Below are positions 42,362 through 61,618 of a DNA stretch of 62,245 nucleotides, one piece after another (the first letter of the stretch is position 1; the number at the start of each line of letters is the position of its first letter). The notes beneath the pieces are model-generated. The model was not told the origin of the DNA, did no database searches, and saw only the letters and a program-made list of their open reading frames with translations. This DNA comes from Thermoleophilia bacterium (GTDB taxonomy: Bacteria; Actinomycetota; Thermoleophilia; Gaiellales; JAICJC01), in assembly GCA_025928655.1 (NCBI GenBank), contig JAICJC010000004.1:1-62245 (forward strand). Reading direction: 5' to 3'. Both the position numbers and the translations under genes were made by a program.

Positions 42362-43663
42362 ATGACGCTTGCCGACGTGACGACCGCCCCGCCGCGCTGG
42401 GGAACGCGGCAAGGCGCCGCTCGTCCGCCGCGCCTCGGGGTGGACGAGCGCGCCGGATCGCGGAGGCTGCCGCTGGCCCTGACGGCGGCGGTGGTCTTCA
42501 TGCTTCCGGTGACCGTTCCCCGCGGGCCCGGGAACCTCGGCCCCGCCGACCTCTTCATTGTCATGGCGATTGCAGCCTGGCTGTTTTCGGCCGCGGCGGG
42601 CGGGGAGAAGATCCGGTTCCCGTACGCGCTCGGGATGGGGCTGCTCATGGCCGGCGGGGCGATCGGTGGCCTCGCGGGCCCGCTCCCCGACGCGGCGCTG
42701 CTCGCCCTGGTGCAGGATCTCCTGCTGCTCGCCTGGTGCTGGACCCTGGTCAACGTGTGCCGGAGCCCGGAGAGGGCCGGCGTCGTGCTCAACACCTGGG
42801 TGTACGGCTCCATCGTGTGGGTCCTCCTGCTCTTCGTCGGGCTGGCCACCGGCGCGGCCGCGCTGACAGGTCGAATCCCCACCGAGGGGAGCCGCACGGC
42901 GCTGACCTTCGGCGACCCCAACGTGTGCGCGAACTACTTCTTCGTGTCCCTTGCGATCATCTGGGCGACGGGCCGGCCCCGGAATCGCGTGGTTCGGACA
43001 CTGGTGTCCGGGGCGATGATCGCGGCGATGGTCACGACCGGGTCGAACAGCGGGCTCGTCTCGCTCGCGGTCGGCCTGTCCGCCAGCCTCGTCTTCGCGA
43101 CATACCGGCGGTCGGGCCTGATCCCGGCACTGGCGGCGACCGCCTGCATCGTGGTCGTCGCGGGCGTGGGCCTGTCGACGGTCAGCCTGCACTCCATCCA
43201 GCGGCGGGCCTACACGAGCGGCTACGCCGTCCTGCGGGACGGGATCGGACGCGGCCAGGCCAGCGTCACCGAGCGCAGCAGGGTCCTGAGCGAGAGCCTC
43301 AAGCTCTACACGGAGGGCGGCCCGCTCGGCGAGGGCCCCGTGTCCACCAAGCCGCGGATGGAGGCCGCGATGGATCCCTACCCGAAGGAGGCTCATGACG
43401 ATTACTTCGCGGCCCTGCTCGAGCGCGGCATCGTCGGGGCACTGGGACTCGTGATCCTGATCTCCGGCATGCTGGTCCGCACCGGCTCCCTTCTGCGCCG
43501 GGGAGCGGAGCCGCTCGGCGGCGTGCTCCGCAATCCGCAGGCGCTCGCCGCGGGCGTGGCCGGCACGATGACGACGATGGCCGTCTACGAGCTCCTGCAC
43601 GTCCGGCACGTCTGGGGCCTGTTCGCCATCATCGCGGTCGCCGCAGCGTGGGAGCGACGGTGA
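42362..43663 (+). CDS. O-antigen ligase/polymerase (Wzy-like)
   Basis: Multi-TM; FGDPN, TGSNSG, EAHDDY..ERGIVG. Confidence 0.8.
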   Translation: MTLADVTTAPPRWGTRQGAARPPRLGVDERAGSRRLPLALTAAVVFMLPVTVPRGPGNLGPADLFIVMAIAAWLFSAAAGGEKIRFPYALGMGLLMAGGAIGGLAGPLPDAALLALVQDLLLLAWCWTLVNVCRSPERAGVVLNTWVYGSIVWVLLLFVGLATGAAALTGRIPTEGSRTALTFGDPNVCANYFFVSLAIIWATGRPRNRVVRTLVSGAMIAAMVTTGSNSGLVSLAVGLSASLVFATYRRSGLIPALAATACIVVVAGVGLSTVSLHSIQRRAYTSGYAVLRDGIGRGQASVTERSRVLSESLKLYTEGGPLGEGPVSTKPRMEAAMDPYPKEAHDDYFAALLERGIVGALGLVILISGMLVRTGSLLRRGAEPLGGVLRNPQALAAGVAGTMTTMAVYELLHVRHVWGLFAIIAVAAAWERR

Positions 43664-44985
43664 CGGCGGCGCGCCGGAGCGCTCGACGCCTCGTCTCCGG
43701 GTCGTTCTCCACCCTCCTCGCCAACGTCGGCGCGCGCGTCGTGGCACTCGCCAGTGTGGGCGTCTGCACCCTGCTGATCGCGCGGGCCGACGGGTCCGCG
43801 GGCGTCGGTATCTACGCGCTGCTCCGCGTCCTGCCGGGGTTGGCCGGTGTCGTGATCTCGTGCGGTCTGCCCGGCGCCGTGGCCTACTTCCTGGCCGGCC
43901 CGACCCGCGACGACCGCCGGCTCGCGGCGACCGTCGCGGCGATGACCCTGGCGGGCGGATGTGCCGGCGCGCTGTGCTGGCTGGCGCTTGCCCCGGTCGC
44001 CGGCGATCGACTGTTCGAGGGCGTCGGGACCGTGCTGGTCGCGTGGGCCGGCGCCGCTGTCCTCACCCAGCTGATCGTCGCGACGGTCAAGTCGTGCGCC
44101 CAGGGCAGCGGCGATATGCGCGGGGCGAACCTCGTGATCGTGAACGAGGAGCTCATGTTCCTGCCCGCGTACGGGCTGCTCTGGGCGGCCGGCGTGACCG
44201 GCGACACCGCGCTCGTCGCCGCGCTGATCGCGGCCGACGTCCTCACCTTCGTGTGGGCGCTCGCGCGCCTTCGCCGACGGGGGTTCTTCCGGGGCGCGCA
44301 GGCACCGTCGCCCGCGCTGGCGCGGCGGATCGCGGCGTACGGCCTCCGCGCACAGGTGGGAGGGATCATGACGCTGCTCAACCTCCGGCTCGACTTCATC
44401 CTGCTGAGCGTCATGGCCGGGCCGGCGGTGCTCGGCGTGTATGCGATCGCGTCCAAGTTCGCGGAGCTCGTGAAGGTTCCGGCGATGGCCCTCACCTACG
44501 TGCTGTACCCGCGCTACTCGCGCGAGGGAGGCACGGCGGCGGCCGCGGACGCACGCCGTCTGCTGCCCCGGGCCGGGGTGTCGCTGGGGGCGGCGATCGT
44601 GCCGCTCTGGTTCGCCGCGGGGTGGCTGATCCCCGCCCTCTACGGGGCCGCGTTCCACCCCGCCGTCGTCCCGGCGCGGATCATCCTCGTGGGACTCGTC
44701 CTGGAGGGAGTGGCCGGGGTCCTGACGGGGTTCCTCTACGGCATCGGACGGCCGGGCCTGAACTCGTGGGCGATGGGGGCGGGTCTCCTGGTGACCGTCG
44801 TCCTCGACCTTCTGCTCATCCCGCCGTTCGGCTCGACCGGCGCCGCAGTGGCGTCCGCATCCGCCTACCTCGTGAGCTCGCTCGCACTCGTCGCCTGCTT
44901 CCGGATGGTGCAGTCACCATCTGCGCCGAGGGCCCCGACGGCGGTGCCCCAGGCAGACGCGGGCCAGGCCGAGCCCGCACACTAG
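43660..44985 (+). CDS. Polysaccharide flippase (Wzx-like)
   Basis: Multi-TM; RLDFILL, GVYAIA, LLIPPFGSTGAAVAS. Confidence 0.82.
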   Translation: MTAARRSARRLVSGSFSTLLANVGARVVALASVGVCTLLIARADGSAGVGIYALLRVLPGLAGVVISCGLPGAVAYFLAGPTRDDRRLAATVAAMTLAGGCAGALCWLALAPVAGDRLFEGVGTVLVAWAGAAVLTQLIVATVKSCAQGSGDMRGANLVIVNEELMFLPAYGLLWAAGVTGDTALVAALIAADVLTFVWALARLRRRGFFRGAQAPSPALARRIAAYGLRAQVGGIMTLLNLRLDFILLSVMAGPAVLGVYAIASKFAELVKVPAMALTYVLYPRYSREGGTAAAADARRLLPRAGVSLGAAIVPLWFAAGWLIPALYGAAFHPAVVPARIILVGLVLEGVAGVLTGFLYGIGRPGLNSWAMGAGLLVTVVLDLLLIPPFGSTGAAVASASAYLVSSLALVACFRMVQSPSAPRAPTAVPQADAGQAEPAH

Positions 44986-45033
44986 ACCATCGGCCAGTTG
45001 TCCATCACGTACCGGGATCTTACGATCGCTCTC

Positions 45034-45990
45034 ATGAATCGGAACGCAGGCACGGCAGTCGTCACGGGCGGGGCGGGATTCCTGGGATCCCACCTCTGTG
45101 ATTACCTCCTGGCACGCGGCCAGCGTGTGATCTGCATCGACAATCTCGATACCGGATCGCTCAAGAACATCTCCCATCTGGGGCGGGACGACTTCACCTT
45201 CGTCCAGCATGACGTCACCCGGTTCATCGCGATCGACGAGCCCGTGGACGTCGTCTATCACCTCGCCAGCCCGGCGAGCCCCATCGACTATGCCCGGCTT
45301 CCGCTGCAGACGCTCAAGGTGGGCTCGTACGGGACGCACAACGCGCTTGGCCTCGCCAAGGCGAAGCGCGCCCGGTTCCTGCTCACCTCGACGAGTGAGG
45401 TGTACGGCGATCCCCACATCCATCCCCAGCCGGAGAGCTACTGGGGCAACGTGAACCCGATCGGGCCGAGAGGCGTCTACGACGAGGCGAAGCGGTACGC
45501 GGAGGCGATGACGATGGCGTACCATCGCCAGCAGGGCGTCGACACCGCCATCGCGCGGATCTTCAACACCTACGGTCCCCGGATGCGGCCCCGCGACGGG
45601 CGGGCGATTCCGACGTTCGTCCGCCAGGCGCTCGAGGACAAGCCGATCACCGTCTTCGGAGACGGCTCCCAGACGAGAAGCTTCTGTTACGTCGACGACC
45701 TCGTGCGCGGCCTCCACCTGCTCGCGACGAGCGGGGAGCACCTCCCCGTGAACCTCGGCAACCCCGCGGAGTTCACCGTTCTCGAGCTCGCGGAGGCCGT
45801 GATCCGGGTGACCGGTTCGGCGAGCGAGATCGTGCATGAAGCGCTGCCGGTCGACGATCCGCGCGTTCGCCGCCCGGACATCGACCGCGCGACGAGGCTG
45901 CTCGGGTGGTCACCGCAGATCGAGCTCGAGGACGGCCTGCGCCGCCTGCTCGGCGTCGCGCGGCCGCAGGCGGTCGGCGCCGAGCTATGA
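45034..45990 (+). CDS. UDP-glucuronate decarboxylase family
   Basis: [43 protein letters not shown]. Confidence 0.9.
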
Positions 45991-46000
45991 GCGGAGAACG

Positions 46001-46819
46001 ATGACGGTCGCCGGCACTGACATCACAGCCACGCCGCCTTCCCCGCTCGCCGCCGGCGGCGGCGGCAAGCGCACTCCTGTACAGGCGGTGGTGCTCGCCG
46101 GCGGAAGGGGCACTCGGCTCGCGCCCTACACCTCGGTCCTCCCCAAGCCGCTGATGCCGATCGGCGAGCGTTCGATACTCGAACTCGTCCTCGGTCAGCT
46201 CACCGACTCGGGAATCGAGAAAGTGACGTTATGTGTCGGATACCTCGCTCATCTGATCGAAGCAGTGATCGGCAACCGGTGTCCTAACGGATTGCAGATC
46301 AGGTACGTCCACGAGCAGGAGGCGCTCGGGACGGCCGCGCCGCTGCTGCTGGTCCCCGACCTCGACGGCACCTTCATCGCGATGAACGGCGACATCCTGA
46401 CCACGCTCGACTTCACCGCGCTCGTCAACCATCATCGCGAAATGAAGAACCTGATCACAATCGCGACGCACGAGCGCCCGATCAAGATCGACTACGGCGT
46501 GCTTCGTGTCGGCCGCAACGGGTCGGCGGGACGCGTCGTCGGCTTCCAGGAGAAGCCCGAGATGACATCCACCGTCAGTATGGGGATCTACGTCTTCGAG
46601 CCGCGCGCGCTTGAGTTCATCCCCGCCGGCGGATACTTCGATTTCCCCCAACTGGTGCATGTGCTGCTGGAGGCGGGAGAGCCGATCGGGGTGTATCCGT
46701 ACACCGGGCTGTGGTTCGACATCGGCCGCAGGGAGGACTACGAGCGCGCCGTCGAGGCCTGGCTCCCGGCGGCGACGGCGAGCTCCGAGGCGCTCAAGCT
46801 GGCCGGCGGAATGCGGTGA
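46001..46819 (+). CDS. Sugar-phosphate nucleotidyltransferase
   Basis: LAGGRGTRL..PKPL, LGTA, MNGD, EKP, WFDIG. Confidence 0.9.
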   Translation: MTVAGTDITATPPSPLAAGGGGKRTPVQAVVLAGGRGTRLAPYTSVLPKPLMPIGERSILELVLGQLTDSGIEKVTLCVGYLAHLIEAVIGNRCPNGLQIRYVHEQEALGTAAPLLLVPDLDGTFIAMNGDILTTLDFTALVNHHREMKNLITIATHERPIKIDYGVLRVGRNGSAGRVVGFQEKPEMTSTVSMGIYVFEPRALEFIPAGGYFDFPQLVHVLLEAGEPIGVYPYTGLWFDIGRREDYERAVEAWLPAATASSEALKLAGGMR

Positions 46820-48015
46820 CCCAGGTCGCCGGGGATCACCAGGGCACGGGGGCTCGGGGGACCCTCGACGCGAGCGCGACGCCTTCATGGGTCGTTCCGC
46901 TCTCGGACGTCGATCCCAGCGAGGAGCTCCAGGAGGCGGTGGCGGCCGCCGTGCGCTCGGGTTGGTGGAGCGCCGGGCCCCGGGTCGCCGAGTTCGAGCG
47001 CGCGTTCGCCGGCCTGTGCCGGACCAAGCACGCGGTCGCCGTCGCCAACGGCACCGCCGCCCTCCACCTGGCACTCCTCGCGATCAGGTGCGGGCCGGGC
47101 GACGAGGTCGTCATCCCGTCCCTCAACTTCGTGGCGGGTGCGAATTCGATCGGCCATCTCGGCGCAACTGCGGTGTTCTGCGACATCTGCGACGATGACG
47201 ACCTCACCGTCGACCCTCGTGACGTGGAAGCCGCGATCGGCCCGGCGACGAGGGCGATCGTCGTCATGCACTACGGCGGCCACCCCTGTCGGATGGACGA
47301 TCTGCTCGACATCGCCGCCCGCCGCGGCGTCGCGGTGATCGAGGACGCCGCGCACGCGCCCGGGGCCGCGCTGGCTGGTCGCGCGTGCGGTGCGATGGGC
47401 GCGATGGGCTGTTTCAGCTTCTTCTCCAACAAGAACCTTCCCATGGGGGAGGGCGGCATGGTCGTCACGGACGACGACGAGCTCGAGCGGCGAGTGCGCC
47501 TCCTCCGGTCACATGGGATGACGACGCTCTCGTGGGAGCGGCATCGCGGGCACGCGAACAGCTACGACGTGCTGCTGGAGGGGTTCAACTACCGGATGGA
47601 CGACCTGCGGGCCGCGATGGGGCTGGCGCAGCTACCGGGCCTCCGTGATGCCAACACCGCCCGCGGGCGCATCGTCGCGAAGTACCGGGAGGCGCTCCAC
47701 GGCTTCCGCGGCATCCGCATGCCGTTCGCCCCGCGGAGCGGCACGGTCCCTGCCCATCACCTCGCCGTCATCCTGCTTCCGCCGGGCACGCGCCGGGCCG
47801 AAGTCCGTGCCGCGCTGGCAGCGTCCGGGATCCAGAGCAGCGTGCACTACCCACCCACGCACCGCTTCTCGTGGTACCAGGCACGCGGGCGAGGCCGGCC
47901 CCTCCCCCGCACGGAGGCCGTGAGCGAGCGGCTCCTGACGTTGCCGCTCTACCCCCACATGGACGACGCAGCCGTCCTCGCGGTGGTCGACGCCGTGTCC
48001 GAGGCGGTCCGGTGA
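46816..48015 (+). CDS. DegT/DnrJ/EryC1/StrS sugar aminotransferase
   Basis: NGTAALHLAL, EDAAHA, SFFSNKNL..GEGG, GFNYRM. Confidence 0.92.
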   Translation: MTQVAGDHQGTGARGTLDASATPSWVVPLSDVDPSEELQEAVAAAVRSGWWSAGPRVAEFERAFAGLCRTKHAVAVANGTAALHLALLAIRCGPGDEVVIPSLNFVAGANSIGHLGATAVFCDICDDDDLTVDPRDVEAAIGPATRAIVVMHYGGHPCRMDDLLDIAARRGVAVIEDAAHAPGAALAGRACGAMGAMGCFSFFSNKNLPMGEGGMVVTDDDELERRVRLLRSHGMTTLSWERHRGHANSYDVLLEGFNYRMDDLRAAMGLAQLPGLRDANTARGRIVAKYREALHGFRGIRMPFAPRSGTVPAHHLAVILLPPGTRRAEVRAALAASGIQSSVHYPPTHRFSWYQARGRGRPLPRTEAVSERLLTLPLYPHMDDAAVLAVVDAVSEAVR

Positions 48016-48064
48016 GGCGTCGACCCGTACAGGTCCGCGCGAGCGAGAGGAGTGGCATCCACCC

Positions 48065-49408
48065 ATGGAGCTGAACGACGCCTTCCACCGGATCTTCCGG
48101 CAGCACCTGCTGGTCATCCTCCTCATGGTGGCGGTGTGCGTGACCGGCGCGGCCGTCCTCGGTCTCGGTGAGAAGCCGTCGTACACGGCGTCGACCCGGC
48201 TCGTGCTCGACACCCAGGATCCGCAGTCCAGCACGGGATCGACGGTCATCGGCGACACTGCAAAGGCGATCGCCACGAGCCCGGTCGAGGTTAGCGCGGC
48301 GCTGTCCCAGGCACACATCGCGGACCGGAACCCGACGGAAGTCGCGAAGCACGTGTCGGTCAGCCCCCTCGGAACCTCCGGGGTGCTCCAGCTGTCCGTC
48401 ACCGACAGCAAGCCGGCATACGCTCGCGCCCTCGCGAACGCCCTCGCCGAGCAGGTCATCCGGACTCGCAGCACGGTGAACACCCGCCGGATCGACCAGA
48501 TCTCGGCCGACCTCGACGGCCGGATCCGCGTCCTCAACCAGCGGATCGCCGGTGCGGATGCGGCCGTCGATCAGTTCAACCGTCAGCTCGCGGCGGGCCA
48601 GACGGGCACGGCCGCGGCCCGCCTACGCTCGCAGATCGACTCGGAGTCGCGGCTGCGTGACTTCGACGCCGAGCAGCGCGGTGTCCTGGTGTCGGAGCGG
48701 CTCGGTCTGCTCTCGACGGACGCACTCCGTCCGCAGGCCTCGGTGATCAGCCGGGCGACGCTCCCACGGGACGCCGATGCCAGCCGGCGCGTGCCGGACC
48801 TCATGCTGGGACTGCTGCTGGGGCTCATCCTCGGTATCGGGGCGGCAGCCCTGATCGAGACGTTCAAGCCGACGCTTCACGGCGCCGAGATGCTCGCCCG
48901 CGAGTTCGGGACGTCGTACCTCGGCACGATCCCGGCGACCGCCGGCGAGGAGGAGGCGGACCTGGGTACGGAGCCGATCACCCTCGTGCTGCGCCTGGCG
49001 GCGGAAGGGGCCGGGGTCCGGAGCGTGAATCTCCTCGCCGCGGTGCGGGATCCGGGCCTGACCGCTGCGGCCGCGAACCTGGAAGCGGCCGTCAACGGGA
49101 TCTCCGGGCCGGACGCCGATCCCTCCGCCCCCGTGGCCGCCGGCGGCACCCAGCCGTACCGTCCGAGGAAGCGGGAGCGGTACGAGCCGCCGGAGGCTTC
49201 GCCGCTTCCCCTGCGCGTACGCACGTTCGGGATCGATTTCCCGGCGAGCCGAAACGGCGCTCCCAGCGGCGTGGTCCTGGTCGCACCGCAATCGCTTCGC
49301 AGGTCGCGCGTGCTCGAGGTGAAGCACCTGCTGAGCGTGATGCCGGTGCCCGTCCTGGGCCTGATTTCATACGGATCCGGGAGCCGCTGGATGACCGAGC
49401 CCTCGTGA
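48065..49408 (+). CDS. Chain-length regulator (Wzz/Wzc-like) with degenerate cytoplasmic tail
   Basis: N-terminal TM, YTASTRL, coiled coil, second TM; no Walker A. Confidence 0.7.
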   Translation: MELNDAFHRIFRQHLLVILLMVAVCVTGAAVLGLGEKPSYTASTRLVLDTQDPQSSTGSTVIGDTAKAIATSPVEVSAALSQAHIADRNPTEVAKHVSVSPLGTSGVLQLSVTDSKPAYARALANALAEQVIRTRSTVNTRRIDQISADLDGRIRVLNQRIAGADAAVDQFNRQLAAGQTGTAAARLRSQIDSESRLRDFDAEQRGVLVSERLGLLSTDALRPQASVISRATLPRDADASRRVPDLMLGLLLGLILGIGAAALIETFKPTLHGAEMLAREFGTSYLGTIPATAGEEEADLGTEPITLVLRLAAEGAGVRSVNLLAAVRDPGLTAAAANLEAAVNGISGPDADPSAPVAAGGTQPYRPRKRERYEPPEASPLPLRVRTFGIDFPASRNGAPSGVVLVAPQSLRRSRVLEVKHLLSVMPVPVLGLISYGSGSRWMTEPS

Positions 49409-50679
49409 ACCGCGCCGGCGCTCCTCGCGCGGGGATGGTAATGGAGCTCGATCCGCGGGCGCCGGCGGGAGCCGCTGCCGCCGCCCGCGGTGCCGCGGCC
49501 CGGACGCGGCCGCTCCGGGTCGCCCAGATCGTCACCAAGCTCACGGCCGGCGCCGGCGGCATCACGCTGCGTGGCGCGGCGGCGCTCGATCCGCGGGAGT
49601 ACCGGACGACCATCCTCACCGCCGGCGAGAGCTCGCTGATCGCTCCGGCAGAGGCCGCCGGGCTGGAGGTGATCCGGCTCCAGCACATGGCCCGGGGACG
49701 GGGGCTGTACCCGTCAACCGACGTGCGGGGGATGCGAGAGCTCGTGGATCATCTGCGCGCAGGCGGCTTCGACGTGGTCCACACCCACAGCGCCAAGGCA
49801 GGGGCCATCGGCCGTCTGGCGGCACGGCGGGCGGGCGCGCGGGCGATCGTGCACTCGTTTCACGGCTTCCCGTTTCACGAGTTCCAGCCGGCGGTCGTCC
49901 GCCGCTCCCTGCTCGCCGCCGAACGGGGTCTGTCGCGGATCACCGACTACTTCCTGGCCGACGGCACCATGGTCGCCGCGGAGGCGGTGCGGCTCCGGCT
50001 GGCCGCATCCGGGACGATCCGCGCGATCGCCAGCCCGGTGGACGACGGAATCGCGGCCGCGACGGCCGAGACCCGCCGCCGCGCGAGGATGCTGCTCGGG
50101 CTTCCCGAGGATGCCACGGTCGTCGGGACGGCCGCCCGTCTCAGTCACCAGAAGGCGCCGCTCGACATGGTCCGGGCGCTCGCCCGCCTCGGACGACCGG
50201 ACGTCACCGTCGTGTGGATCGGAGACGGTGAGCTCCGCTCACGCACCGAGCGGGAGATCTGCCGCTCAGGGCTCGGGAGCCGGTTCCTGCTCCTCGGCGA
50301 GCGCTCGGATGTGCCGGCGCTTCTGCCGGCGTTCGACGTGTTCGCGCTCCCGAGCCTGTACGAGGGGCTGCCGTGCGCGCTCGTCGAGGCGATGACGTGC
50401 GGCATCCCGGTCGTTGCGACGGCGGTGAACTCGGTGCCGGAGATCGTCATCGCGGGAAGAACGGGGCTGCTGGCCCGGCCGGCCGATCCGTCGTCCATGG
50501 CAGATGCCCTGCGCTCGATGCTCGACCATCCCGCCGCTGCGGCCGAGATGGCGGCCGCAGCGCGGTCCCGGATCGGGACCGGGTTCCGGCCCGACGTGCA
50601 CGCGCGTGACCTGGTCGTGGCGTACGAATCGGCGCTCGAGCTGGCGGCCCGGCGCCGGCACATTCCCGGGGCGGCGTGA
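49405..50679 (+). CDS. GT4 glycosyltransferase
   Basis: HTHSAKAG, PSLYEGLPCALVEAM..G.PVVAT. Confidence 0.9.
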   Translation: MNRAGAPRAGMVMELDPRAPAGAAAAARGAAARTRPLRVAQIVTKLTAGAGGITLRGAAALDPREYRTTILTAGESSLIAPAEAAGLEVIRLQHMARGRGLYPSTDVRGMRELVDHLRAGGFDVVHTHSAKAGAIGRLAARRAGARAIVHSFHGFPFHEFQPAVVRRSLLAAERGLSRITDYFLADGTMVAAEAVRLRLAASGTIRAIASPVDDGIAAATAETRRRARMLLGLPEDATVVGTAARLSHQKAPLDMVRALARLGRPDVTVVWIGDGELRSRTEREICRSGLGSRFLLLGERSDVPALLPAFDVFALPSLYEGLPCALVEAMTCGIPVVATAVNSVPEIVIAGRTGLLARPADPSSMADALRSMLDHPAAAAEMAAAARSRIGTGFRPDVHARDLVVAYESALELAARRRHIPGAA

Positions 50680-51662
50680 TGCGGGCGTCCTTCGAAAGCG
50701 CCGGGGTGCAAGTGGACGTCGACTGCCAGCTTCCATGGGTCGGCGACCTCATCTCGGAGGGGACCGCCGGCGAGCTGTGTCCGCCCGCCGGCCGTTCGGC
50801 GTCGCTTCGGGTGCAGGTCGAGAGCGACCATCGTCCGTTCAGCGCGCACGGCTGGCGGTACATGAGCCGCGGGGTGTGGCAGCGCCGCGACGGGGTGGTC
50901 GTCGAGGACGTCTGCACGACCGGGTTCGATCTTTACGCCCGGGTGCTCGGGGATGGGGCGACCTTCACGTACCGGTGGCGGCCCCGCCCCAGGAGCCGCA
51001 CGGCGGCCGTCGCGCTGCGGTCGCGGTTTCACCTGCTCGCCCGGGCGGCCCTCCTCCAGTACCCCGCCCTGTGGTGGGCGGGGGCGCACGGGCGCGCACC
51101 GCTCCACGCGTCCGCGGTGGCGGAGCCTCATGCCACCCCGCTCGTCTGCGCGGCGAGCGGGGTCGGCAGGTCGACGCTGCTGGTCGCGGAGGTGGAGCGG
51201 GGCCACCGAACGACGGGCGACAACCTGGGCGTGAGCGACGGCGAATCGGTGTGGGGCCTGCTGGAGCCGGCACGTGTGGTCGGCGGCGCAGGGCGACGGA
51301 TGCCGCATGGCCGGCGAGAGATCAGGATCTCCGGCCGCGCCGCGGCGCTGACGCCGTCGTGCGTCGTGACGCTCGAGCGCGGTGACGGCGAGCGGCCGGT
51401 CCTGCTGCCGTGTGCGCCCGAGACGGCTGCACGGGCGCTGGTGACGAGCACCTACATGGCCGGCGAGCTGCGGCGGTACTGGGTATTCGCGGCGGTTCTC
51501 GCGGCGGCCACCGGCCGAGGTCCGGCGCATCCTGCGGTCGCCGACACGGCGTCGCGTCTGACGACCCGCCTGCCCTGCTGGACGGTCGCGCTCGGGCGGG
51601 AGCCGGGGGCGCGACTGGACGATCTCCTTTCGCGGGCGGAGGTCGAGACATGGGTGTCGTAG
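50676..51662 (+). CDS. HPr-kinase-related P-loop protein (diverged)
   Basis: PLHASAV followed by AASGVGRSTLL and TTGDN, resembling LHA...G.SG.GKST...DD. Confidence 0.55.
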   Translation: MMRASFESAGVQVDVDCQLPWVGDLISEGTAGELCPPAGRSASLRVQVESDHRPFSAHGWRYMSRGVWQRRDGVVVEDVCTTGFDLYARVLGDGATFTYRWRPRPRSRTAAVALRSRFHLLARAALLQYPALWWAGAHGRAPLHASAVAEPHATPLVCAASGVGRSTLLVAEVERGHRTTGDNLGVSDGESVWGLLEPARVVGGAGRRMPHGRREIRISGRAAALTPSCVVTLERGDGERPVLLPCAPETAARALVTSTYMAGELRRYWVFAAVLAAATGRGPAHPAVADTASRLTTRLPCWTVALGREPGARLDDLLSRAEVETWVS

Positions 51663-53098
51663 CCCGGGAGCCAACCGGTCTCGTGCCGGAGGCGGGATCG
51701 CGCGTCCGCTTGATCGAGAACGCGGCCCTGCCGGCCGACCGCGCGGCGCTGCGCGTACTCCGGGCGGGGGTACGGCACGCGGACCTGGCGGCCCCGGCCG
51801 TCGCCCTTCCCGACTTCCATCACAAGGGCGACAAGGAGATGCCTTCCAGCATCGTCGTCGCCACGAGGTCGACGATCCAACCGACCTATACGAGCGCGTC
51901 GCTCAACTGCGGCATGGCGCTCGTGACCACGGATATCGATCTCCCGGGCGATGCCGCCGTCGCCGAGTTCTACCGCCGCTTTCGCGAGAGCTACCCCTAT
52001 CCGCCGTCATACCGCCGCGACCTGACGGGGTGGGACGTGGTCCGGTGCGCCGCCGAGGGCGCGGACTTCGCGGCCGAGCAGTTCGGGGTGCACCGGGAGG
52101 AGGTGAGCCGGGTCGAGCTCGGCGGCCGGGTCGACGTCGCGCATCTCGGCGGCGCCGGCCGCGTCCGGCGCGAGCTCCCGTGGTCTGTAAGGCAGCTCGG
52201 CCGGATCAGGTTCGGGACCATCGGCCCGAGCAACCACTTCCTCGAGCTTCAGGAGGTCGCCGAGGTGTTCGACCCGGCCGCGGCCGCCGCGCTCGGGCTC
52301 GCACTCGGGCAGGTCACCCTCCAGTACCACGGCGGCGGCGGCTCGCTCCCCGGCGAGCTGGGCCTGCTGTTCGGGCGACGGAAGCGCCGGCCGCGCGCGG
52401 TCGGGATGCAGATGGCCGTCCAGAAGCCGCTCTACCACTTCGGCAGGGCGCGCTCGATCGCGGAGCTCCGGCGCAGGCGCGCGCTCTTCTTCTCGGACGA
52501 CCCTCCACCGGTCGACCGCAGCACCGCCGAGGGCGAGCAGCTCTCCCTGGCGAACGCGATGGCCATGAACTACGGCTTCGCCTTCCGGCTCTCCACCTAC
52601 GCGAGGCTCCGCGTGCTTCTGCACAAGCACCTGGGGGCTCGCAGTGTGCGCCTCCTCGTCGACACCTCCCACAACTCGATCTATGAGGAGGAGGTGGACG
52701 GCGAGCCCGCGATCGTGCATCGGCACAACGCCTGCCGGATCTTCCCGGCCTCCGAGCTCGCAGGTCACCCCGTGTTCGCGCGCACGGGCCAGCCGCTCCT
52801 CCTGCCCGGAACGGGCAGGACGTCCTCGTACGTCTGCATCCCGGGCGAGCATCCCGAGCGGTCGCTGCACAGCGTCTGCCACGGGGCCGGGTCGGTGGTC
52901 GCGGATCTCTCCCGCCGGGCGATGCCGACGAGCCGGGCGGGCTGCGGCAGTACGCTCCGCTTCACGTACGGGACCGCCCCGCCCGCCCGCGTGCCCCATA
53001 TCGACGACGCCGGCATCGACGCCGTGGTCGATCTGCTCCGCGACAGCGGCATCATCCGGCCCGTCGTGCGGCTGCGGCCTTTCGCGGGGCTGACGTGA
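51650..53098 (+). CDS. Diverged RtcB-family protein
   Basis: GGAGG RBS; LPDFH, NCGM, GTIGPSNHFLELQ, YHGG, SHN, HRHNA, LPG, SVCHGAG, RLRP. Confidence 0.8.
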   Translation: MGVVAREPTGLVPEAGSRVRLIENAALPADRAALRVLRAGVRHADLAAPAVALPDFHHKGDKEMPSSIVVATRSTIQPTYTSASLNCGMALVTTDIDLPGDAAVAEFYRRFRESYPYPPSYRRDLTGWDVVRCAAEGADFAAEQFGVHREEVSRVELGGRVDVAHLGGAGRVRRELPWSVRQLGRIRFGTIGPSNHFLELQEVAEVFDPAAAAALGLALGQVTLQYHGGGGSLPGELGLLFGRRKRRPRAVGMQMAVQKPLYHFGRARSIAELRRRRALFFSDDPPPVDRSTAEGEQLSLANAMAMNYGFAFRLSTYARLRVLLHKHLGARSVRLLVDTSHNSIYEEEVDGEPAIVHRHNACRIFPASELAGHPVFARTGQPLLLPGTGRTSSYVCIPGEHPERSLHSVCHGAGSVVADLSRRAMPTSRAGCGSTLRFTYGTAPPARVPHIDDAGIDAVVDLLRDSGIIRPVVRLRPFAGLT

Positions 53099-53544
53099 GC
53101 GACGGCGCGTACGCGGTCGAGCGCTGGCGGCGCAACCGACGGGTGATCGCGCCCGCCGACGCCCTCGTCGCCGAGGTGGCGCCGTTCCGGAGGAGGAACG
53201 GCGCGCTGATCCGGCGGGTGGGAGCACTCGCCGCGGGCAGCCCGGTGGTCGTGTGCTCGCCGCCCCCCTTCGCCCGGTATCGCTGCCGGCGGTTCGCATC
53301 GGCCGCGGGGATCGACATCGACCGCGAGTACCTCGCCCTCCCGAGGCCTGGGGCACCCGCCTACCTCGTCGAGGACGCTCCGGCCGCGACCGCGTACTTC
53401 GTGCGCTCGATCCTCGTGCCGCCGCCCGGGAGGATCTGGACCGCGCCTCTCCGTCTGTGCGTGTCCGTCGTCTCGTGGCTTCCGAACCCCGGGCTGGTCC
53501 TGCGATCGGTCGCGCCGCGCACGGTGGTGGGGACGCGGCGGTGA
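53095..53544 (+). CDS. Hypothetical protein
   Basis: GTGA-coupled on both sides; EYLALP...AYLV segment. Confidence 0.6.
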   Translation: MSDGAYAVERWRRNRRVIAPADALVAEVAPFRRRNGALIRRVGALAAGSPVVVCSPPPFARYRCRRFASAAGIDIDREYLALPRPGAPAYLVEDAPAATAYFVRSILVPPPGRIWTAPLRLCVSVVSWLPNPGLVLRSVAPRTVVGTRR

Positions 53545-54578
53545 CCGACCTGCTTCCCGTGGACGGCCGGACCGTGCCCGCAGTCGATGCCCCGGCGCCC
53601 TCGATGGCGGAGGTCGTCCGCGGCACCCCGGGGGTGCGTTCGGTCGTCATCGGTGTGTCCAAGGACCCGAACGCCAAGGTGACGGTGCTGCTCGTCTCGG
53701 AGCGGGATGGGATGCCCGTGATGGCGGTGAAGGTGCCGACGACGCCGATCGCCGCTGCGGCGGTCGAGTCCGAGACGGCCGCGCTCGTCGAGCTGCACGC
53801 CCGCTACTCCGGCGCCGCCATCCGAACGATCCCGCGCGTGGTCCGCATGGTCGAGGTCGACGGTCTGCGGGGGGTCGTGATGACGGCGGTACCGGGGACG
53901 CCGATGACCCGTGGGTACGTGTGTCGGCGCCGCTCGCGGCGCGGGCGGACGGAGGCGCACCTGAGCGCCGTATCGGAATGGCTCGCGTCCCTCCACTCCG
54001 TCACCGGCGCGGGGTCCGCTCCGATCGACATGGACATGGGGGTGAAGTCGGAGCTCGAGACGCGGTTCGGGGATGACCGGCGCCTGGGGGATGACCTCGG
54101 CCGGCTTGCTGCGATCCACGCCAGGCTGGGGAGCGACCACGCCACGCGAGCCGTTGTGCACGGAGATCTGTGGTTCGGGAACGTGCTGGTGGGGCCGGGA
54201 GGAGTCACCGGCGTCGTCGACTGGGAGGCGGCGTGCGTGGGCGGCGAGCCGGTCCGGGACCTGGCCCGGTTCGCGATCATGTACGCCCTCTACCTCGACG
54301 AGGGTACGGGCGTGCCCGGCCGGTGGCATGGGCGCGACGCGAAGCGCTCGCGACCCTGGGGCGACGGGATCGAGTTCGCGGTGAACGGCACCGGGTGGTT
54401 CCCTGACCTCTTCCGGGGCTTTCTCAGAGACGGGTTACGGCGCCTCGGGGCATCCCCCGCCCTGTGGCGTGACGCCGTGCTGGCGGGGGTCGCCGACGTC
54501 GCCGCCCGTACCGACGACCCGGCGTTCGGGCGCTTGCACCTGGACCTTTTTCGCCGCCTGACCGGACCTACGGGCTAG
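53541..54578 (+). CDS. APH/choline-kinase-like phosphotransferase
   Basis: AVKVP, HGDLWFGNVL, VVDWE. Confidence 0.82.
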   Translation: MTDLLPVDGRTVPAVDAPAPSMAEVVRGTPGVRSVVIGVSKDPNAKVTVLLVSERDGMPVMAVKVPTTPIAAAAVESETAALVELHARYSGAAIRTIPRVVRMVEVDGLRGVVMTAVPGTPMTRGYVCRRRSRRGRTEAHLSAVSEWLASLHSVTGAGSAPIDMDMGVKSELETRFGDDRRLGDDLGRLAAIHARLGSDHATRAVVHGDLWFGNVLVGPGGVTGVVDWEAACVGGEPVRDLARFAIMYALYLDEGTGVPGRWHGRDAKRSRPWGDGIEFAVNGTGWFPDLFRGFLRDGLRRLGASPALWRDAVLAGVADVAARTDDPAFGRLHLDLFRRLTGPTG

Positions 54579-54599: not shown

Positions 54600-55403
54600 C
54601 TAGGAGCCGACGGCGTGGTGCGAGCGCTCTTCGTCGACCCGGCCGATCCGGGCCCAGCGGCTGGCCTGCGTCCGGTTCGTGACGTTGAGCTTCCGGTAGA
54701 TGTTGGACAGGTGGAACTTCACGGTCTGCTCGCTGACCCAGAGCTGTCGCGCGATCTCGGCGTTCGCCATACCTTCGGAGACATGCGTGAGGATCTCCCG
54801 CTCGCGGCGGGTCAGGTGCGCTCCCAGGGCTGCCCGATCGTCCCTTCTGGGCGGTTCGGCCGGTGCGGGCCCGTGCCCCTCGGAGCCCACGACGAGCCCG
54901 GGCGCGGCGGGGACCGAGGAGGGCGGCGCGAAGACGATCGAATGCTCGAAGATCTGCCGGATCGCCGAGGCGAGGTCGTCGGGCCGGACGTGCTTCATCG
55001 CGTACGCCGTGGCGCCGGCGCTGAGCACGTCGCTCACGACGGACGCCTCGACCTGGGTCGAGAGGACGATCACCTTGATGTCGGTGCGGGCCTCGATGAC
55101 ATCTCGCAGATAGGAGGTGCCGCCGATCTGGCCGGGTCCGAAATCGATGTCGGTGACGACGATGTCAGGGCGGTGCTCGACGATCAGCGCGAGACCCTCC
55201 GCAGGCGAGGTCGCCTTGCCGAGGGTGGGCAGGCCAAGTCCGCGGAGAACCGCCTCGACGGCGTCGAGCCAGAGCGGATAGGCATCGATCACGACCGCTG
55301 ACGCGCGCCCCTCTCCGTGCCCGTCGCGATCTTGGCGGAGTGTCCCCACGACATCCCCCGATGGTGTAGGACGGTTTCCTTCCGGAAATCCCGTGGCAAC
55401 CAT
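54600..55403 (-). CDS. NarL/LuxR response regulator
   Basis: REC domain (IVVTD, AYAMK) plus LTRREREIL..TVKFHLSNIYRKL; start uncertain. Confidence 0.88.
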   Translation of the reverse strand: MVATGFPEGNRPTPSGDVVGTLRQDRDGHGEGRASAVVIDAYPLWLDAVEAVLRGLGLPTLGKATSPAEGLALIVEHRPDIVVTDIDFGPGQIGGTSYLRDVIEARTDIKVIVLSTQVEASVVSDVLSAGATAYAMKHVRPDDLASAIRQIFEHSIVFAPPSSVPAAPGLVVGSEGHGPAPAEPPRRDDRAALGAHLTRREREILTHVSEGMANAEIARQLWVSEQTVKFHLSNIYRKLNVTNRTQASRWARIGRVDEERSHHAVGS

Positions 55404-55615: not shown

Positions 55616-57757
55616 GTGAGGGTTCGGCGGGACGTCGGCGGTGCGGGAGCGGGCTGCGGTGGACGACAGGCGCGTCGACCGCACGCCTCCGTCCGTTCGT
55701 TCGGCCGCCGCGTCGCGGTTGTGGGAGTGGGGCTGGCGACCCTGCTCGGGGCGACATCGATGCCCGCCTTCGGCGCCGGGTCGATCCTGTACGTGGACGG
55801 CTCGAGTGCATCCTGCGCGGATTCCGGGCCGGGAACGGCTGCCCAGCCCTTCTGCACGATCACCGCCGCAGCTTCACATGCCGGCGCGGGCCAGACCGTG
55901 CAGGTCGCGAGCGGCACCTACACGGAGGATGTGAAGGTCTCGGCTTCTGGCAGCCCGGGCGCGCCGATCACGTTCCAACCCGCTCCGGGCGCCGTCGTGA
56001 CGCTCACGGGCAAGGCGGACGGGTTCACGCTCACGAACGCGAGCTGGATCACGGTGACCGGATTCGAGATCACGCGGACGACCTCCTACGGCATCAACGT
56101 GACCGGCGGCTCGCACGTCGCCATCTCCGCCAACCACGTCACCTTCTCCGGCCAGCCGATCCAGGGCCAGATCGCCGCGGGCATCCACCTGAGCGGTGTG
56201 ACCAGCTCGCTCGTTTCGGGGAACGACTCCGATCACAACAGCGACTACGGCATCACGGTCGTCGGTGGATCCACGGGGGTCGAGGTACGCGGGAACACGA
56301 CCTACGCCAACTCGCGAGTGTACGAGCGGGCGACCGCCGGGATCCGGATCTACCAGTCTCCAGGCAACATCGTTGACCGCAACATCACCCACGACAATCA
56401 GGACTCGGGGATCGAGTGTTACCCGGGGGCGAACAACACGCTGATCTACGACAACGTCTCGTACGACAACGGCGACCACGGGATCGACAACCTCACCGCG
56501 ACGGGAGAGGTGATCGTCGGGAACACCGTCTACGGCAACGTCACGGCCGGCATCAACGTCGAAGGCGGCTCGACGGGCGCGACCATCGGGGACAACATCA
56601 GCGTCGACAACGGCATCGGCAGCCCCCGGACGCACAGCGACATCCGCGTCGAGCACGGGTCGACCGCAGGGACGACGATGGACTACGACCTGGTCCACCT
56701 TTCGACGGCCGACACGCTCTTGATCTGGGACTCGGTGAGCTACAAGTCGCTCAGTGCCTTCCAGGCCGCGAGCGGTCAGGAGGCGCACGGGATCGACGCG
56801 GATCCACGCTGGGAGGCTCCCGGTGCCGGCAACTTCCATCTGACGGCGGGCTCGCCGGCCATCGACTCGGCAGACTCGGGGGTGACGGGCGAGCCGGGCA
56901 CGGACGTCGAGGGGAATCCTCGGGTCGACGACCCCGGTACCGCCGATACCGGCGCCGGCCCCAACACCTATGATGACCGCGGCGCGTACGAGTTCCAGGG
57001 TACGACCCCGAGCCAGCCACCGTCCGCCGCGCTGACCGCCCGGCCCTCCTCGGGCGTCGCGCCGCGGCCCGTCACGGCCGACGCGTCGGCATCGACGGCC
57101 GGCGGCGCGAACCCGATCGCCTCGTACAGCTTCGACTTCGGCGACGGCTCCGCCCCGATTGGCCCGCAGTCCGGGGCGACCGCCACGCACACCTACACCC
57201 AGCTGGGGGCCTTCACCATCACCGTCACGGTGACCGACACCAGCGGGGCATCCTCGACGGCAACCGCTGTCGTCACGGTCTCCTCCCCGGGCTCCCAGCA
57301 GTTCGTCGGCAACCAGGGATTCGAAACCGACCTCACCGGCTGGAATACATCCGGATCGAGCACGGGCGTCACCCTGACACGGACAAGCGGCGGGCACAGC
57401 GGGTCATGGGCGGCGCAGGTCTCCAACCCCACGACCGCGAGCGTCGGCACGTGTCTCTTGAACGACTCGCCGAACTGGGTGAAGACGACGGCGGGCGGGA
57501 CATACACCGCATCCATGTGGGTGCGGGCGGACTCACCGGGATCGGTGCTGAAGCTGCGGTTCCGCGAGTACACGGGCAGCACGCTCGTGGGCACCGCCAC
57601 GTCGCAGCTGACCCTGTCCTCGACCTGGCAGCAGGTCACGCTCGCCTACACCCCTGGCGCGCCCGGGTCGTCGACCCTCGACCTGAACGCCTACGTCTCG
57701 GCGGCCGCCCCGGGAACCTGCTTCTACGCCGACGACGTCTCGGTGACGCTCGGCTGA
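55616..57757 (+). CDS. Secreted right-handed beta-helix + PKD + CBM4/9-like protein
   Basis: Signal peptide, QPFCTI, repeated N..DHGI turns, FDFGDG/HTYT (PKD), NQGFETDLTGW (CBM). Confidence 0.8.
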   Translation: MRVRRDVGGAGAGCGGRQARRPHASVRSFGRRVAVVGVGLATLLGATSMPAFGAGSILYVDGSSASCADSGPGTAAQPFCTITAAASHAGAGQTVQVASGTYTEDVKVSASGSPGAPITFQPAPGAVVTLTGKADGFTLTNASWITVTGFEITRTTSYGINVTGGSHVAISANHVTFSGQPIQGQIAAGIHLSGVTSSLVSGNDSDHNSDYGITVVGGSTGVEVRGNTTYANSRVYERATAGIRIYQSPGNIVDRNITHDNQDSGIECYPGANNTLIYDNVSYDNGDHGIDNLTATGEVIVGNTVYGNVTAGINVEGGSTGATIGDNISVDNGIGSPRTHSDIRVEHGSTAGTTMDYDLVHLSTADTLLIWDSVSYKSLSAFQAASGQEAHGIDADPRWEAPGAGNFHLTAGSPAIDSADSGVTGEPGTDVEGNPRVDDPGTADTGAGPNTYDDRGAYEFQGTTPSQPPSAALTARPSSGVAPRPVTADASASTAGGANPIASYSFDFGDGSAPIGPQSGATATHTYTQLGAFTITVTVTDTSGASSTATAVVTVSSPGSQQFVGNQGFETDLTGWNTSGSSTGVTLTRTSGGHSGSWAAQVSNPTTASVGTCLLNDSPNWVKTTAGGTYTASMWVRADSPGSVLKLRFREYTGSTLVGTATSQLTLSSTWQQVTLAYTPGAPGSSTLDLNAYVSAAAPGTCFYADDVSVTLG

Positions 57758-59886: not shown

Positions 59887-60560
59887 TCGAATCGGTCCTC
59901 CGCCCGGGCCAGATCGTCGGGTGTCGTGATCTTCTCGTTGCCGGCCTCGCCGTTCACCGCCGCGACGGCGAAGCCGGCCGCCTCGACCAGCGAGGCGCAG
60001 TCCGTCGCCCCGCGCAAGGCATCGGACGAGCCGGAGAACGCCTGCCGCAGCGCCGCCGCCCGGAAGGCCTGGGGCGTCTGCACCGCGCGCAACTCGCCCC
60101 GGTCGAGCGTCTCGGCCACGACGCCTTCGCGCACCCGCTTCACCGTGTCGGTCACGGGCAGCGCCGGGATCGCGCCGTCGTGCTCCCCGAGGGCCGCCAG
60201 CACCCGGTCGACCAGCTCCGCCGAGGCGAAGGGCCGGGCGGCATCGTGCACCAGGATCGCCTCCGCGTCGGCCGCCACCTGGGCCAGGCCGGCGGCGACG
60301 GAGAGCGCGCGGGTCTCGCCGCCCGGGACGGCCGCCGCCACCTTCCCGGCCGCGAGCTCGTCGGCGAGCAGCGAGGCCGGTTCGTCCCACCCGGCCGGGA
60401 CCACAAGCACCATCCGGTCGACGGCCGGGTGATCCTCGAAGAGGTCGATCGAACGCGCGAGGAGCGGACGCCCGGCGAGCCGCACGAACGCCTTCGGCAC
60501 ATCGGCGCCCAAGCGCGTGCCCTCGCCGCCGGCAACCACGATCGCCCAGGTCGGGCTCAT
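59883..60560 (-). CDS. ispD: 2-C-methyl-D-erythritol 4-phosphate cytidylyltransferase
   Basis: AGGEGTRLG..PK, GGETR, VHDAARP, VQTPQ, KITTPDD. Confidence 0.93.
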   Translation of the reverse strand: MSPTWAIVVAGGEGTRLGADVPKAFVRLAGRPLLARSIDLFEDHPAVDRMVLVVPAGWDEPASLLADELAAGKVAAAVPGGETRALSVAAGLAQVAADAEAILVHDAARPFASAELVDRVLAALGEHDGAIPALPVTDTVKRVREGVVAETLDRGELRAVQTPQAFRAAALRQAFSGSSDALRGATDCASLVEAAGFAVAAVNGEAGNEKITTPDDLARAEDRFE

Positions 60561-61618
60561 CCCGCGTCCGGGCTCGCGTTCACCTTGGTGAAGATCATCT
60601 TGCCCGACGGCGACTGCAGCACCGAGGTCACCTCCACCGCGGCCGTCTCGCCCAGCATCCGCCGGCCGCCCTCGACCACCACCATGGTGCCGTCGTCGAG
60701 GTAGCCGACGCCCTGGTCGTGCTCCTTGCCCTCGCGGATCACGCGGACGTCGAACGACTCACCCGGGAGCACCGCCGGCTTCAGCGCGTTCGCGAGCTCG
60801 TTCACGTTCAACACGACGACGTCCTGGATCCGGGCCAGCCGGTTCAGGTTGAAGTCGGTGGTGAGGATGCGGAGCCCGCGATCCTTGGCCAGCTTGAGCA
60901 GCTTGGCGTCGACGTCGTCGAGCTCGGGGAAGTCGACGTCGGGCGTCGTCACGGTCACCTCGGACCGCAGCCCCTGCACCACCTCGAGCCCGCGGCGGCC
61001 GCGGGCCCGCTTCAGCGAATCGCCCGAATCGGCGACGTGCTGGAGCTCGCGCAGCACGAACTCGGGCACGACCAGCTCGTCCTTGAGGAAGCCGGTGCGC
61101 ACGATGTCGGCGATCCGCCCGTCGATGATCGCGCTCGTGTCGACGAGCGTCACGAAGCCGGGCGGCTCGGCCTCCGTGCCCGGCTCAGCGGTTGCGTGCA
61201 CGCCGACCAGGCGCAGGATGCCGCGGTACTTCTTGGCCGCGGTGAAGGCGAAGAGGTAGCCCACCACCAGGAACAGCGGCAGGATCACCCACTTGCCGAT
61301 GTACGGCAGCGTGTGGACCGGGAACCACAGGAGCGCGGACACGAGCAGCCCCACCAGGAGGCCGATCGCGGCAACTGTCAGCTCGCCCGCGCTGCGGGTC
61401 TGGGCGGCCCGCTCGACCCTCTTGAACCCGCGCACCAGCCCCTTGCCGACGAGGCCCCCCACCATCCACCCGACGGCGAAGACGAGGAAGACGACGACGG
61501 CGAAGGCGGGGTACGCGTAAGAAGCCTGATAACGATCTTCGAGATTAAGAGACAACCCCGCCTGGATGGCACCCAGGATGCCCAAGAGGGACAAGACGAT
61601 CCGGGTTGAGACCACCAT
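60557..61618 (-). CDS. Membrane PIN/TRAM domain protein (YacL-like)
   Basis: DTSAIIDGRI, TTDFNL, QGVGYLDDGTMVVVE. Confidence 0.9.
   Translation of the reverse strand: MVVSTRIVLSLLGILGAIQAGLSLNLEDRYQASYAYPAFAVVVFLVFAVGWMVGGLVGKGLVRGFKRVERAAQTRSAGELTVAAIGLLVGLLVSALLWFPVHTLPYIGKWVILPLFLVVGYLFAFTAAKKYRGILRLVGVHATAEPGTEAEPPGFVTLVDTSAIIDGRIADIVRTGFLKDELVVPEFVLRELQHVADSGDSLKRARGRRGLEVVQGLRSEVTVTTPDVDFPELDDVDAKLLKLAKDRGLRILTTDFNLNRLARIQDVVVLNVNELANALKPAVLPGESFDVRVIREGKEHDQGVGYLDDGTMVVVEGGRRMLGETAAVEVTSVLQSPSGKMIFTKVNASPDAG

Follow-up and report, generated by a model that had tools for sequence, protein, structure and literature searches.

An RtcB homolog encoded within a polysaccharide operon

What is a homolog of RtcB, a protein otherwise known only as a nucleic-acid ligase, doing among the genes for a surface polysaccharide? 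The question is raised by a contig of a Thermoleophilia bacterium (Actinomycetota; Gaiellales; GenBank assembly GCA_025928655.1, contig JAICJC010000004.1, positions 1 to 62,245, the whole of which we refer to as the window; G+C content approximately 72%), in which a gene for an RtcB-like protein lies within a polysaccharide operon that spans 39397-54578 on the + strand according to Pfam matches and open reading frame (ORF) calls. Genes of this type are associated with glycan genes in other genomes also, and the encoded protein has lost the residues with which RtcB contacts RNA. From sequence comparison we suggest, with a probability of about 0.5, that it is a divergent paralogue of RtcB, no longer active on RNA and dedicated to a Wzx/Wzy-type surface-polysaccharide pathway, in which it would activate a kinase-made phosphomonoester with a nucleoside monophosphate (NMP) toward formation of a phosphodiester. 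The genes on which the argument turns are the last six of the operon, with the RtcB-like gene at the core of the finding, and a canonical rtcB elsewhere in the window that serves as comparator:

48065-49408, + strand: Wzz-like chain-length determinant (NCBIfam TIGR03007, E 3e-12; weak Pfam Wzz match)
49405-50679, + strand: family 4 glycosyltransferase (GT4; Pfam Glycos_transf_1, 111 bits, and Glyco_trans_4 domains)
50676-51662, + strand: HPr kinase-like (HPrK-like) P-loop protein, 328 residues (weak match to NCBIfam TIGR04352)
51650-53098, + strand: RtcB-like protein, 482 residues (Pfam RtcB, PF01139, 142.5 bits against a cut-off of 27, residues 48-478)
53095-53544, + strand: conserved 149-residue protein belonging to no family (ORF call and profile hidden Markov model, HMM)
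53541-54578, + strand: APH-family kinase-like protein, 345 residues (Pfam APH, 60.4 bits against a cut-off of 23.2)
18385-19743, - strand: canonical rtcB, outside the module (Pfam RtcB, 228 bits)

The six genes from the Wzz-like to the APH-like gene are coupled by overlapping stop and start codons: four of the junctions are 4-nucleotide GTGA overlaps, and the HPrK-like and RtcB-like genes share 13 nucleotides. An earlier note on this DNA had described such overlaps for the five genes from GT4 onwards, which is what we observe, with the Wzz-like/GT4 junction to be added. It had also placed these genes in a polysaccharide operon, and the six-gene block does form the 3' end of a Wzx/Wzy polysaccharide operon whose Wzx/Wzy-type genes are found by Pfam from 39397 onwards on the same strand. 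The start codon assigned to the RtcB-like gene (ATG at 51650) is backed by MGVV N-termini among its homologues.

By sequence and predicted fold, the protein belongs to the RtcB family. It matches RtcB of Pyrococcus horikoshii among the sequences of the Protein Data Bank (PDB; E 7e-26), and an AlphaFold2 (AF2) model built from 53 homologues has a mean predicted local distance difference test score (pLDDT) of 90.2. All 16 Foldseek matches of this model at E ≤ 0.001 are RtcB or RTCB structures, with template modelling (TM) scores of 0.66-0.69 for the top ones, and the best match is 4dwq (E 1.7e-26, TM 0.69).

Exactly two PF01139 matches are present in the genome, the operon gene and the canonical rtcB for which the earlier note had given a position of 18.4 kb, and the two proteins are 24% identical. 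The canonical copy retains the D, C, NH, H..SRG..H, HN, RKG and HGAGR motifs together with all residues to which a role could be mapped, and it is immediately preceded, on the same strand, by genes for tRNA-Asp(gtc) and tRNA-Glu(ctc) (19775-19942, - strand). This setting fits an RNA-related role, in contrast to that of the operon copy. The RtcB-like gene has none of the RNA-repair context of canonical rtcB (archease, rtcA/rtcR, prfH or tRNA genes), and its neighbours are glycan genes. A search for archease found none in the window's genome, which is 82% complete.

Retained and lost active-site residues

Roles were assigned to residues by aligning the protein with P. horikoshii (Pho) RtcB and comparing the alignment with the available sections of PMC9745838, PMC8051266 and PMC8668186, to which statements about the Pho enzyme are limited; conservation was judged in alignments of 14 close homologues and of 53 sequences. 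In Pho RtcB His404 is the nucleophile, the first metal (M1) is liganded by Cys98, His234 and His329, and the second (M2), which holds the beta and gamma phosphates of GTP, by Asp95, Cys98 and His203 (PMC9745838). The guanine base is contacted by Glu206, Ser385 and Lys480, the last of which reads guanine O6 (PMC8668186), and the 5'-OH strand by Arg238, Arg190, Gln194 and His242, with Asn202 anchoring the nucleophile of step 3 (PMC8051266).

The nucleophile of the Pho enzyme corresponds to H411 of the RtcB-like protein, located in the CHGAG motif where the earlier note had recognised it, and H411, G412 and G414 are invariant in the 53 sequences. The M1 ligands (C87, H227 and H341) are likewise invariant, both the histidine (H196, equivalent to Pho His203) and the cysteine of M2 are kept, and so are the phosphate contacts N195 and N342 (Pho Asn202 and Asn330) and the guanine contacts E199 and S393 (Pho Glu206 and Ser385). 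All of these retained catalytic residues vary little or not at all among the 53 homologues. Pfam family, fold, histidine nucleophile, the Cys/His/His set of M1 and the equivalents of Asn202, Asn330, Glu206 and Ser385 are features that the protein has in common with canonical RtcB, as represented by the P. horikoshii and Escherichia coli enzymes and human RTCB.

In contrast, three hallmarks of an RNA ligase that canonical RtcB possesses are missing, namely the M2 aspartate, the 5'-OH strand contacts and the lysine that reads guanine O6. The position of Asp95 is occupied by Ser84, which is invariant in all 14 close homologues and at least 90% conserved in the 53 sequences. Arg238, Arg190 and His242 align with Gly231 (also conserved), Leu183 and Gly235, an arginine (R187) stands at the position of Gln194, Arg408 is replaced by Ser415, and there is no C-terminal lysine, the protein ending in ...AGLT and the clade consensus in ...AVLN. 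Relative to both Pho RtcB and the canonical copy in the window, SRG has become GGG, RKG has become RHN and HGAGR has become HGAGS; the altered GSRG, RKGA and HGAGR motifs and the missing terminal lysine had all been listed in the earlier note and are borne out by these alignments. Its view of an intact metal site has to be revised. The cysteine and histidine ligands that it listed are present (C87, H196, H227 and H341), but the aspartate of LPDFH (D55), which it had taken for a metal ligand, aligns with Pho Asp65, a residue that is not among the ligands in the available sections of PMC9745838, and it is the true M2 aspartate that has been lost.

Conservation of the gene cluster

Scanning one genome per prokaryotic species yielded 68 loci from other genomes, mostly metagenome-assembled genomes (MAGs) of Actinomycetota (Gaiellales, Thermoleophilia, Streptosporangiaceae and others), together with the cultured Terrabacter sp. 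Root181; a few of the MAGs are labelled Chloroflexi, Acidobacteria or Dormibacterota. Neighbours were counted by tblastn with the window's proteins at a query cover of at least 30%, and several of the misses are loci cut by a contig end. An HPrK-like gene lies beside the RtcB-like gene in 66/68 loci, a GT4 gene, which adjoins the HPrK-like gene, in 63, and an APH-like gene in 62 (65, 62 and 61 of 67, respectively, without L064, a locus in a genome flagged as unpublished). DegT is found in 57 loci and Wzz in 54, and the 149-residue protein in 54 by tblastn and 63 by profile HMM, while beta-helix proteins (30/68) and LuxR-type regulators (17/68) are less regular companions. The HPrK-like, GT4, APH-like, DegT, Wzz and 149-residue genes all share the strand of the RtcB-like gene, as do the beta-helix matches with some exceptions. 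The arrangement is far beyond chance because it is found again in 62-66 of the 68 loci from other genomes, with the qualification that related loci within the sample are non-independent observations.

When four representative loci were scanned with Pfam, genes for Wzy_C, Wzx, Bac_transf, Polysacc_synt_2 and a formyltransferase were also found, and in these loci GT4 is usually the sole glycosyltransferase besides the initiating transferase. In Terrabacter the order of the cluster is DegT, Polysacc_synt_2, the RtcB-like gene, a giant beta-helix/PKD protein, Wzz, HPrK-like, GT4, a 146-residue homologue of the 149-residue protein and APH-like. The suggestion in the earlier note of a repurposed RtcB tied to glycan loci is thus supported by these neighbourhoods, with glycan partners in most of the 68 loci and in 7/11 loci of distant relatives that lack the M2 aspartate (described below), and by the loss of the 5'-OH contacts alongside retention of the His-NMP machinery. 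Homologues situated away from glycan loci, the observation that it expected to speak against such a role, are clearly not what the neighbourhood analysis reveals.

The distribution of the module is patchy. Among 301 sampled genomes of the class, the HPrK-like profile has matches in two, including the window's own, a count too sparse for a test of co-occurrence. Neither the HPrK-like nor the RtcB-like profile has a match in G069 and G162, two genomes of the same genus that are 96-100% complete, and the module is therefore an accessory trait. In G301 and G304 (Terrabacter sp. Root181, which holds L039) the RtcB-like gene of the glycan locus is the only PF01139 match, and the PF01139 search found no canonical RtcB in these two genomes; the RtcB-like type is therefore independent of a canonical RtcB.

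A wider clade lacking the M2 aspartate

Of 8,000 candidates scored in a word-indexed search, 1,601 proteins reached E ≤ 1e-5. The best 120 of the 1,601 all belong to PF01139, almost all are 60-99% identical to the query and they are approximately 480 residues in length; where the source gives a name to homologues, it is tRNA-splicing ligase RtcB. When 1.84 billion cluster representatives were searched exhaustively, 1,187 proteins were found at E ≤ 1e-3, of which 134 were at E ≤ 1e-30. Most of 75 full-length representatives lack the aspartate, with Ser, Ala, Gly, Thr or another residue in its place, and also lack arginine at the Arg238 site.

Phylogenetic analysis, as had been recommended in the earlier note, separates these proteins from canonical RtcB. 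In a FastTree phylogeny of 92 rows, a quick method applied to a sample biased toward relatives of the query, 87 rows group in a single clade (local support 100%) that leaves out the five canonical rows bearing the aspartate, and 86 of the 87 are without it. A nested clade of 56 rows, again with 100% support, carries the H-N motif and includes the window's protein.

The link with glycan genes reaches relatives at 30-37% identity, as judged from about a dozen contexts outside the main clade. For example, L072, L078 and L095 have an HPrK-like gene directly upstream of the RtcB-like gene, accompanied by GT4 genes and asparagine synthase in L072 and by GT4 genes and an APH-family gene in L095. In L073 (6896-11129) two tandem RtcB-like genes are followed directly by a gene for a CDP-alcohol phosphatidyltransferase (CDP-OH_P_transf), with GT4, GT2 and PMT_2 genes around them, and in L074 a CDP-OH_P_transf gene likewise lies directly downstream of the RtcB-like gene, together with Wzx, deacetylase and GT4 genes. 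A Bac_transf-Polysacc_synt_2 fusion and Wzx are found in L079, and in G032 the RtcB-like gene is flanked on one side by Bac_transf and on the other by Wzx, an HPrK-like segment lying at a distance of 3.3 kb. The pattern used to scan metagenomes for distant relatives also fits canonical RtcB, and 66 of the 80 loci it retrieved are canonical; these were used as a control. Matches to the window's glycan-type proteins occur in 7/11 loci without the aspartate, as against 3/66 canonical loci with it, and in 3/4 and 3/37, respectively, if only loci of at least 8 kb are considered. Searching genomes at the phylum level around G301 did not widen the sample: most of what it retrieved again belonged to the main clade, and one locus duplicated another in the count.

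Two variations in the active site were seen among the distant relatives. The second of the tandem RtcB-like proteins of L073 (L073b) has proline in place of the histidine nucleophile. In L075, L077, L079 and L085, as well as in P0195, P0256 and P0262, alanine is present at the Asp95 site and aspartate replaces the metal-bridging Cys98, which, from the aligned residues, looks like a relocated acidic ligand.

Partner proteins

The HPrK-like protein has no Pfam match at E ≤ 0.01, and its match to NCBIfam TIGR04352 (HprK_rel_A) is weak (E 1.2e-3, 18 bits against a cut-off of 200). A profile built from 46 sequences finds HPr kinase (1jb1) in the PDB at E 0.014 over 62 residues, which span the histidine, the P-loop and the D-[DN] motif, the acidic motif reading D-N and not D-D; in the ESM Atlas the nearest named clusters are the HPr kinase C-terminal domain (0.97) and ScmC (0.94). 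The HPrK label is thus plausible but weakly supported. The histidine, a GxGK[ST] P-loop and the D-[DN] pattern can be aligned with HPr kinase over those 62 residues, whereas the HPr kinase-like kinases (HprK_rel_A, ScmC and the lasso-peptide kinases) belong to a phosphotransferase system (PTS) or peptide-modification setting, and the HPrK-like protein belongs to a glycan cluster, falls below every curated cut-off and has arginine in place of the Walker A lysine in 18/46 sequences. The 18 sequences with arginine are the window's protein (GVGRS, 51156-51176) and 17 loci from L001 to L026, and the other 28 have lysine. The N-terminal half of the protein is large and unrelated. Prediction of a complex between the RtcB-like and HPrK-like proteins scored 0.00, which gives no verdict and weighs neither way.

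APH kinases possess a catalytic loop of the form H-x-D-x4-N and a metal-binding aspartate, and the translation of the APH-like gene contains the motifs HGDLWFGN and VDWE. Its nearest solved relatives are fructosamine-3-kinase and the macrolide or hygromycin kinases (E approximately 0.01), which phosphorylate hydroxyl groups of small molecules.

No Pfam or NCBIfam match was found for the 149-residue protein. It is predicted to adopt an alpha/beta fold (AF2, pLDDT 90) with no clear structural match (best Foldseek E 0.01, best VIA Z 7.2); a search of PDB sequences with the family profile gave nothing meaningful, and the ESM Atlas contained hypothetical proteins only. Its gene is always the immediate upstream neighbour of the APH-like gene, including loci in which kilobases separate it from the RtcB-like gene, and on account of this constant position we take the protein as a partner of the APH-like kinase. 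In L031, L052 and L054 the profile HMM gives weak matches that are separate from APH and lie immediately upstream of it; L050 and L053 have no match. A role as an archease-like activator was considered for this protein and set aside: it has no Pfam match, archease is not among the Foldseek and VIA fold matches listed, and the gene stays with the APH-like and not the RtcB-like gene where the two are apart (L048 and L058). A fusion of the 149-residue domain to the longer APH ORF of L050 was also discarded (hhalign probability 0.1%).

Possible function and alternative explanations

The reaction that we envisage for the RtcB-like protein would begin with a covalent His411-NMP adduct formed from a nucleotide, probably a guanine nucleotide. 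The NMP would then be passed to the phosphate of a sugar- or alcohol-phosphate monoester made by the HPrK-like and/or the APH-like kinase, and attack of a hydroxyl on the activated phosphate would leave a unit joined by a phosphodiester, either within the repeat unit or attached to it. In a variant of this scheme the activated phosphate would be released as a nucleoside diphosphate (NDP) ester for GT4 or for a CDP-alcohol phosphotransferase; the CDP-alcohol transferase genes beside distant members fit the diester and the NDP-ester versions alike. The use of cofactor may differ from that of canonical RtcB, the M2 aspartate being lost.

In Lic-type phosphocholine and CDP-alcohol phosphotransferase routes, a kinase makes X-phosphate, this is converted to an NDP-ester, and X-phosphate is transferred onto a hydroxyl. 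The proposed pathway shares this logic, with an APH-family kinase present and CDP-OH_P_transf beside distant RtcB-like genes, but Lic-type routes utilise a nucleotidylyltransferase, whereas the activator here would be an RtcB fold bearing His-NMP that might also perform the transfer. Specialised RtcB paralogues reportedly found in Myxococcus offer a precedent for a narrowed task with a dedicated partner gene. The same precedent is provided by the RtcB2-PrfH ribosome repair system (as described in the available sections of PMC9304027 and PMC9223846). Both the Myxococcus paralogues and RtcB2-PrfH still act on nucleic acids, whereas the window's protein lacks the nucleic-acid contacts and has glycan enzymes as partners.

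Several observations weigh against this proposal. The main caveat concerns M2, whose aspartate (Asp95) is replaced by Ser84 in the window's protein and, in the superclade as a whole, by Ser, Ala, Gly or Thr: since the beta and gamma phosphates of GTP are held by M2 in the canonical enzyme (PMC9745838), nucleotidylation of the histidine from a nucleoside triphosphate may be impaired or may differ. The C-terminal lysine that reads guanine O6 is missing throughout the clade of the window's protein. In L048, L058 and Terrabacter the RtcB-like gene is several kilobases from the block of HPrK-like, GT4, 149-residue and APH-like genes, still within the same cluster. The assignment of the HPrK-like protein to its family is weak, and with arginine in the Walker A motif the subclade to which the window's protein belongs may be inactive as a kinase or may carry out some other phosphate chemistry. 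Finally, that either kinase feeds the RtcB-like enzyme is something we infer.

Alternatively, the protein might perform only steps 1 and 2 of the RtcB reaction, transferring NMP from His411 to a sugar- or alcohol-phosphate, in which case it would be an NDP-donor synthase with a product used by GT4 or, in distant relatives, by a CDP-alcohol phosphotransferase. APH-family anomeric sugar kinases exist, the residues that place the strand of the step-3 nucleophile are lost, GT4 accompanies the gene in 63/68 loci, and CDP-OH_P_transf directly follows it in L073 and L074. Moreover, the RNA(3')pp(5')G intermediate of RtcB is chemically an NDP-ester (PMC8668186, sections available). Nevertheless Asn195, the counterpart of the step-3 anchor Asn202, is kept and a conventional NTP_transferase is already encoded in the window's operon, and we consider this explanation doubtful. 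The RtcB scaffold could also support a different chemistry without nucleotidyl transfer, as a metal-dependent phosphodiesterase, a former or opener of cyclic phosphates, or a non-catalytic or regulatory glycan subunit. Canonical RtcB includes a 2',3'-cyclic phosphodiesterase step (PMC3458531, sections available), and the losses of the M2 aspartate and of Lys480, together with the absence of the nucleophile from L073b, would be in keeping with such a change. This appears unlikely, however, given that His411 in CHGAG, Glu199, Ser393 and Asn195 are near-invariant across the clade, a degree of conservation that would be difficult to account for if no nucleotide adduct were formed.

Known HPrK-family kinases act on serine in proteins or peptides, and ScmC, from a peptide-modification cassette, is among the ESM Atlas neighbours of the HPrK-like protein. 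It is conceivable on these grounds that the HPrK-like protein is a serine kinase whose phosphoserine product is joined by the RtcB-like protein to a glycan hydroxyl, or the reverse (phosphoglycosylation). We regard such a protein- or peptide-directed ligase as improbable, as no gene for a precursor peptide or carrier was identified, the conserved partners are sugar-pathway enzymes and the HPrK assignment itself is weak. It is highly improbable that the protein is an ordinary RNA ligase or repair enzyme merely placed in the operon, as family membership and the name tRNA-splicing ligase RtcB in the public records of its homologues might suggest: it lacks the 5'-OH-strand contacts and the M2 aspartate, it is encoded on the same strand as the glycan genes in 62-66/68 loci and is translationally coupled to them in the window, a canonical rtcB is present elsewhere in the window beside tRNA genes, and the search for archease in the genome, 82% complete, was negative.

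Activation of a phosphomonoester by His-NMP in the polysaccharide pathway, if true, would extend this chemistry of phosphate activation to glycobiology. The automatic name tRNA-splicing ligase RtcB would then need correction on at least 1,600 proteins, and phosphodiester-bearing or otherwise unusual surface polymers would be predicted in abundant, little-studied soil Actinomycetota (Gaiellales, Thermoleophilia and Streptosporangiaceae). As a tentative extension, we raise the possibility that an unrecognised RtcB-fold superclade without the aspartate, comprising dozens of 50%-identity clusters, makes or primes glycan phosphodiesters via His-NMP, by a route separate from NDP-sugar and CDP-alcohol phosphotransferases. 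A full-text literature search, with the supplementary tables of RNA-repair surveys outside its scope, returned nothing on RtcB in glycan loci, and the RtcB literature found treats the protein throughout as a nucleic-acid enzyme. The cultured Terrabacter sp. Root181 carries the full module and the question is therefore directly testable.

Upstream and flanking genes

The remainder of the operon and its surroundings comprise the following features:

39397-48015, + strand: upstream part of the operon, encoding in order a deacetylase with DUF3473, a formyltransferase, Bac_transf, Wzy_C, a Wzx-type flippase, a short-chain dehydrogenase/reductase (SDR) dehydratase/epimerase, NTP_transferase and a DegT aminotransferase (Pfam, ORF calls)
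54600-55403, - strand: LuxR-type response regulator flanking the operon (Pfam Response_reg and GerE)
55616-57757, + strand: beta-helix and PKD protein that often accompanies the cluster (Pfam Beta_helix, PKD)

The combination of DUF3473 deacetylase, formyltransferase, DegT aminotransferase and SDR dehydratase in the upstream part is reminiscent of a route to a 4-amino sugar, either N-formylated or free. The best NCBIfam matches of the DegT aminotransferase are to the PseC and ArnB types, below the cut-offs. The Wzz-like protein (48065-49408) has a long C-terminal region, in the translation of which there is no recognisable Walker A motif; judging from its sequence, this region may be a degenerate tyrosine-kinase-like domain. 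Just past the cluster, a protein with PIN and TRAM domains is encoded on the - strand (60557-61618).

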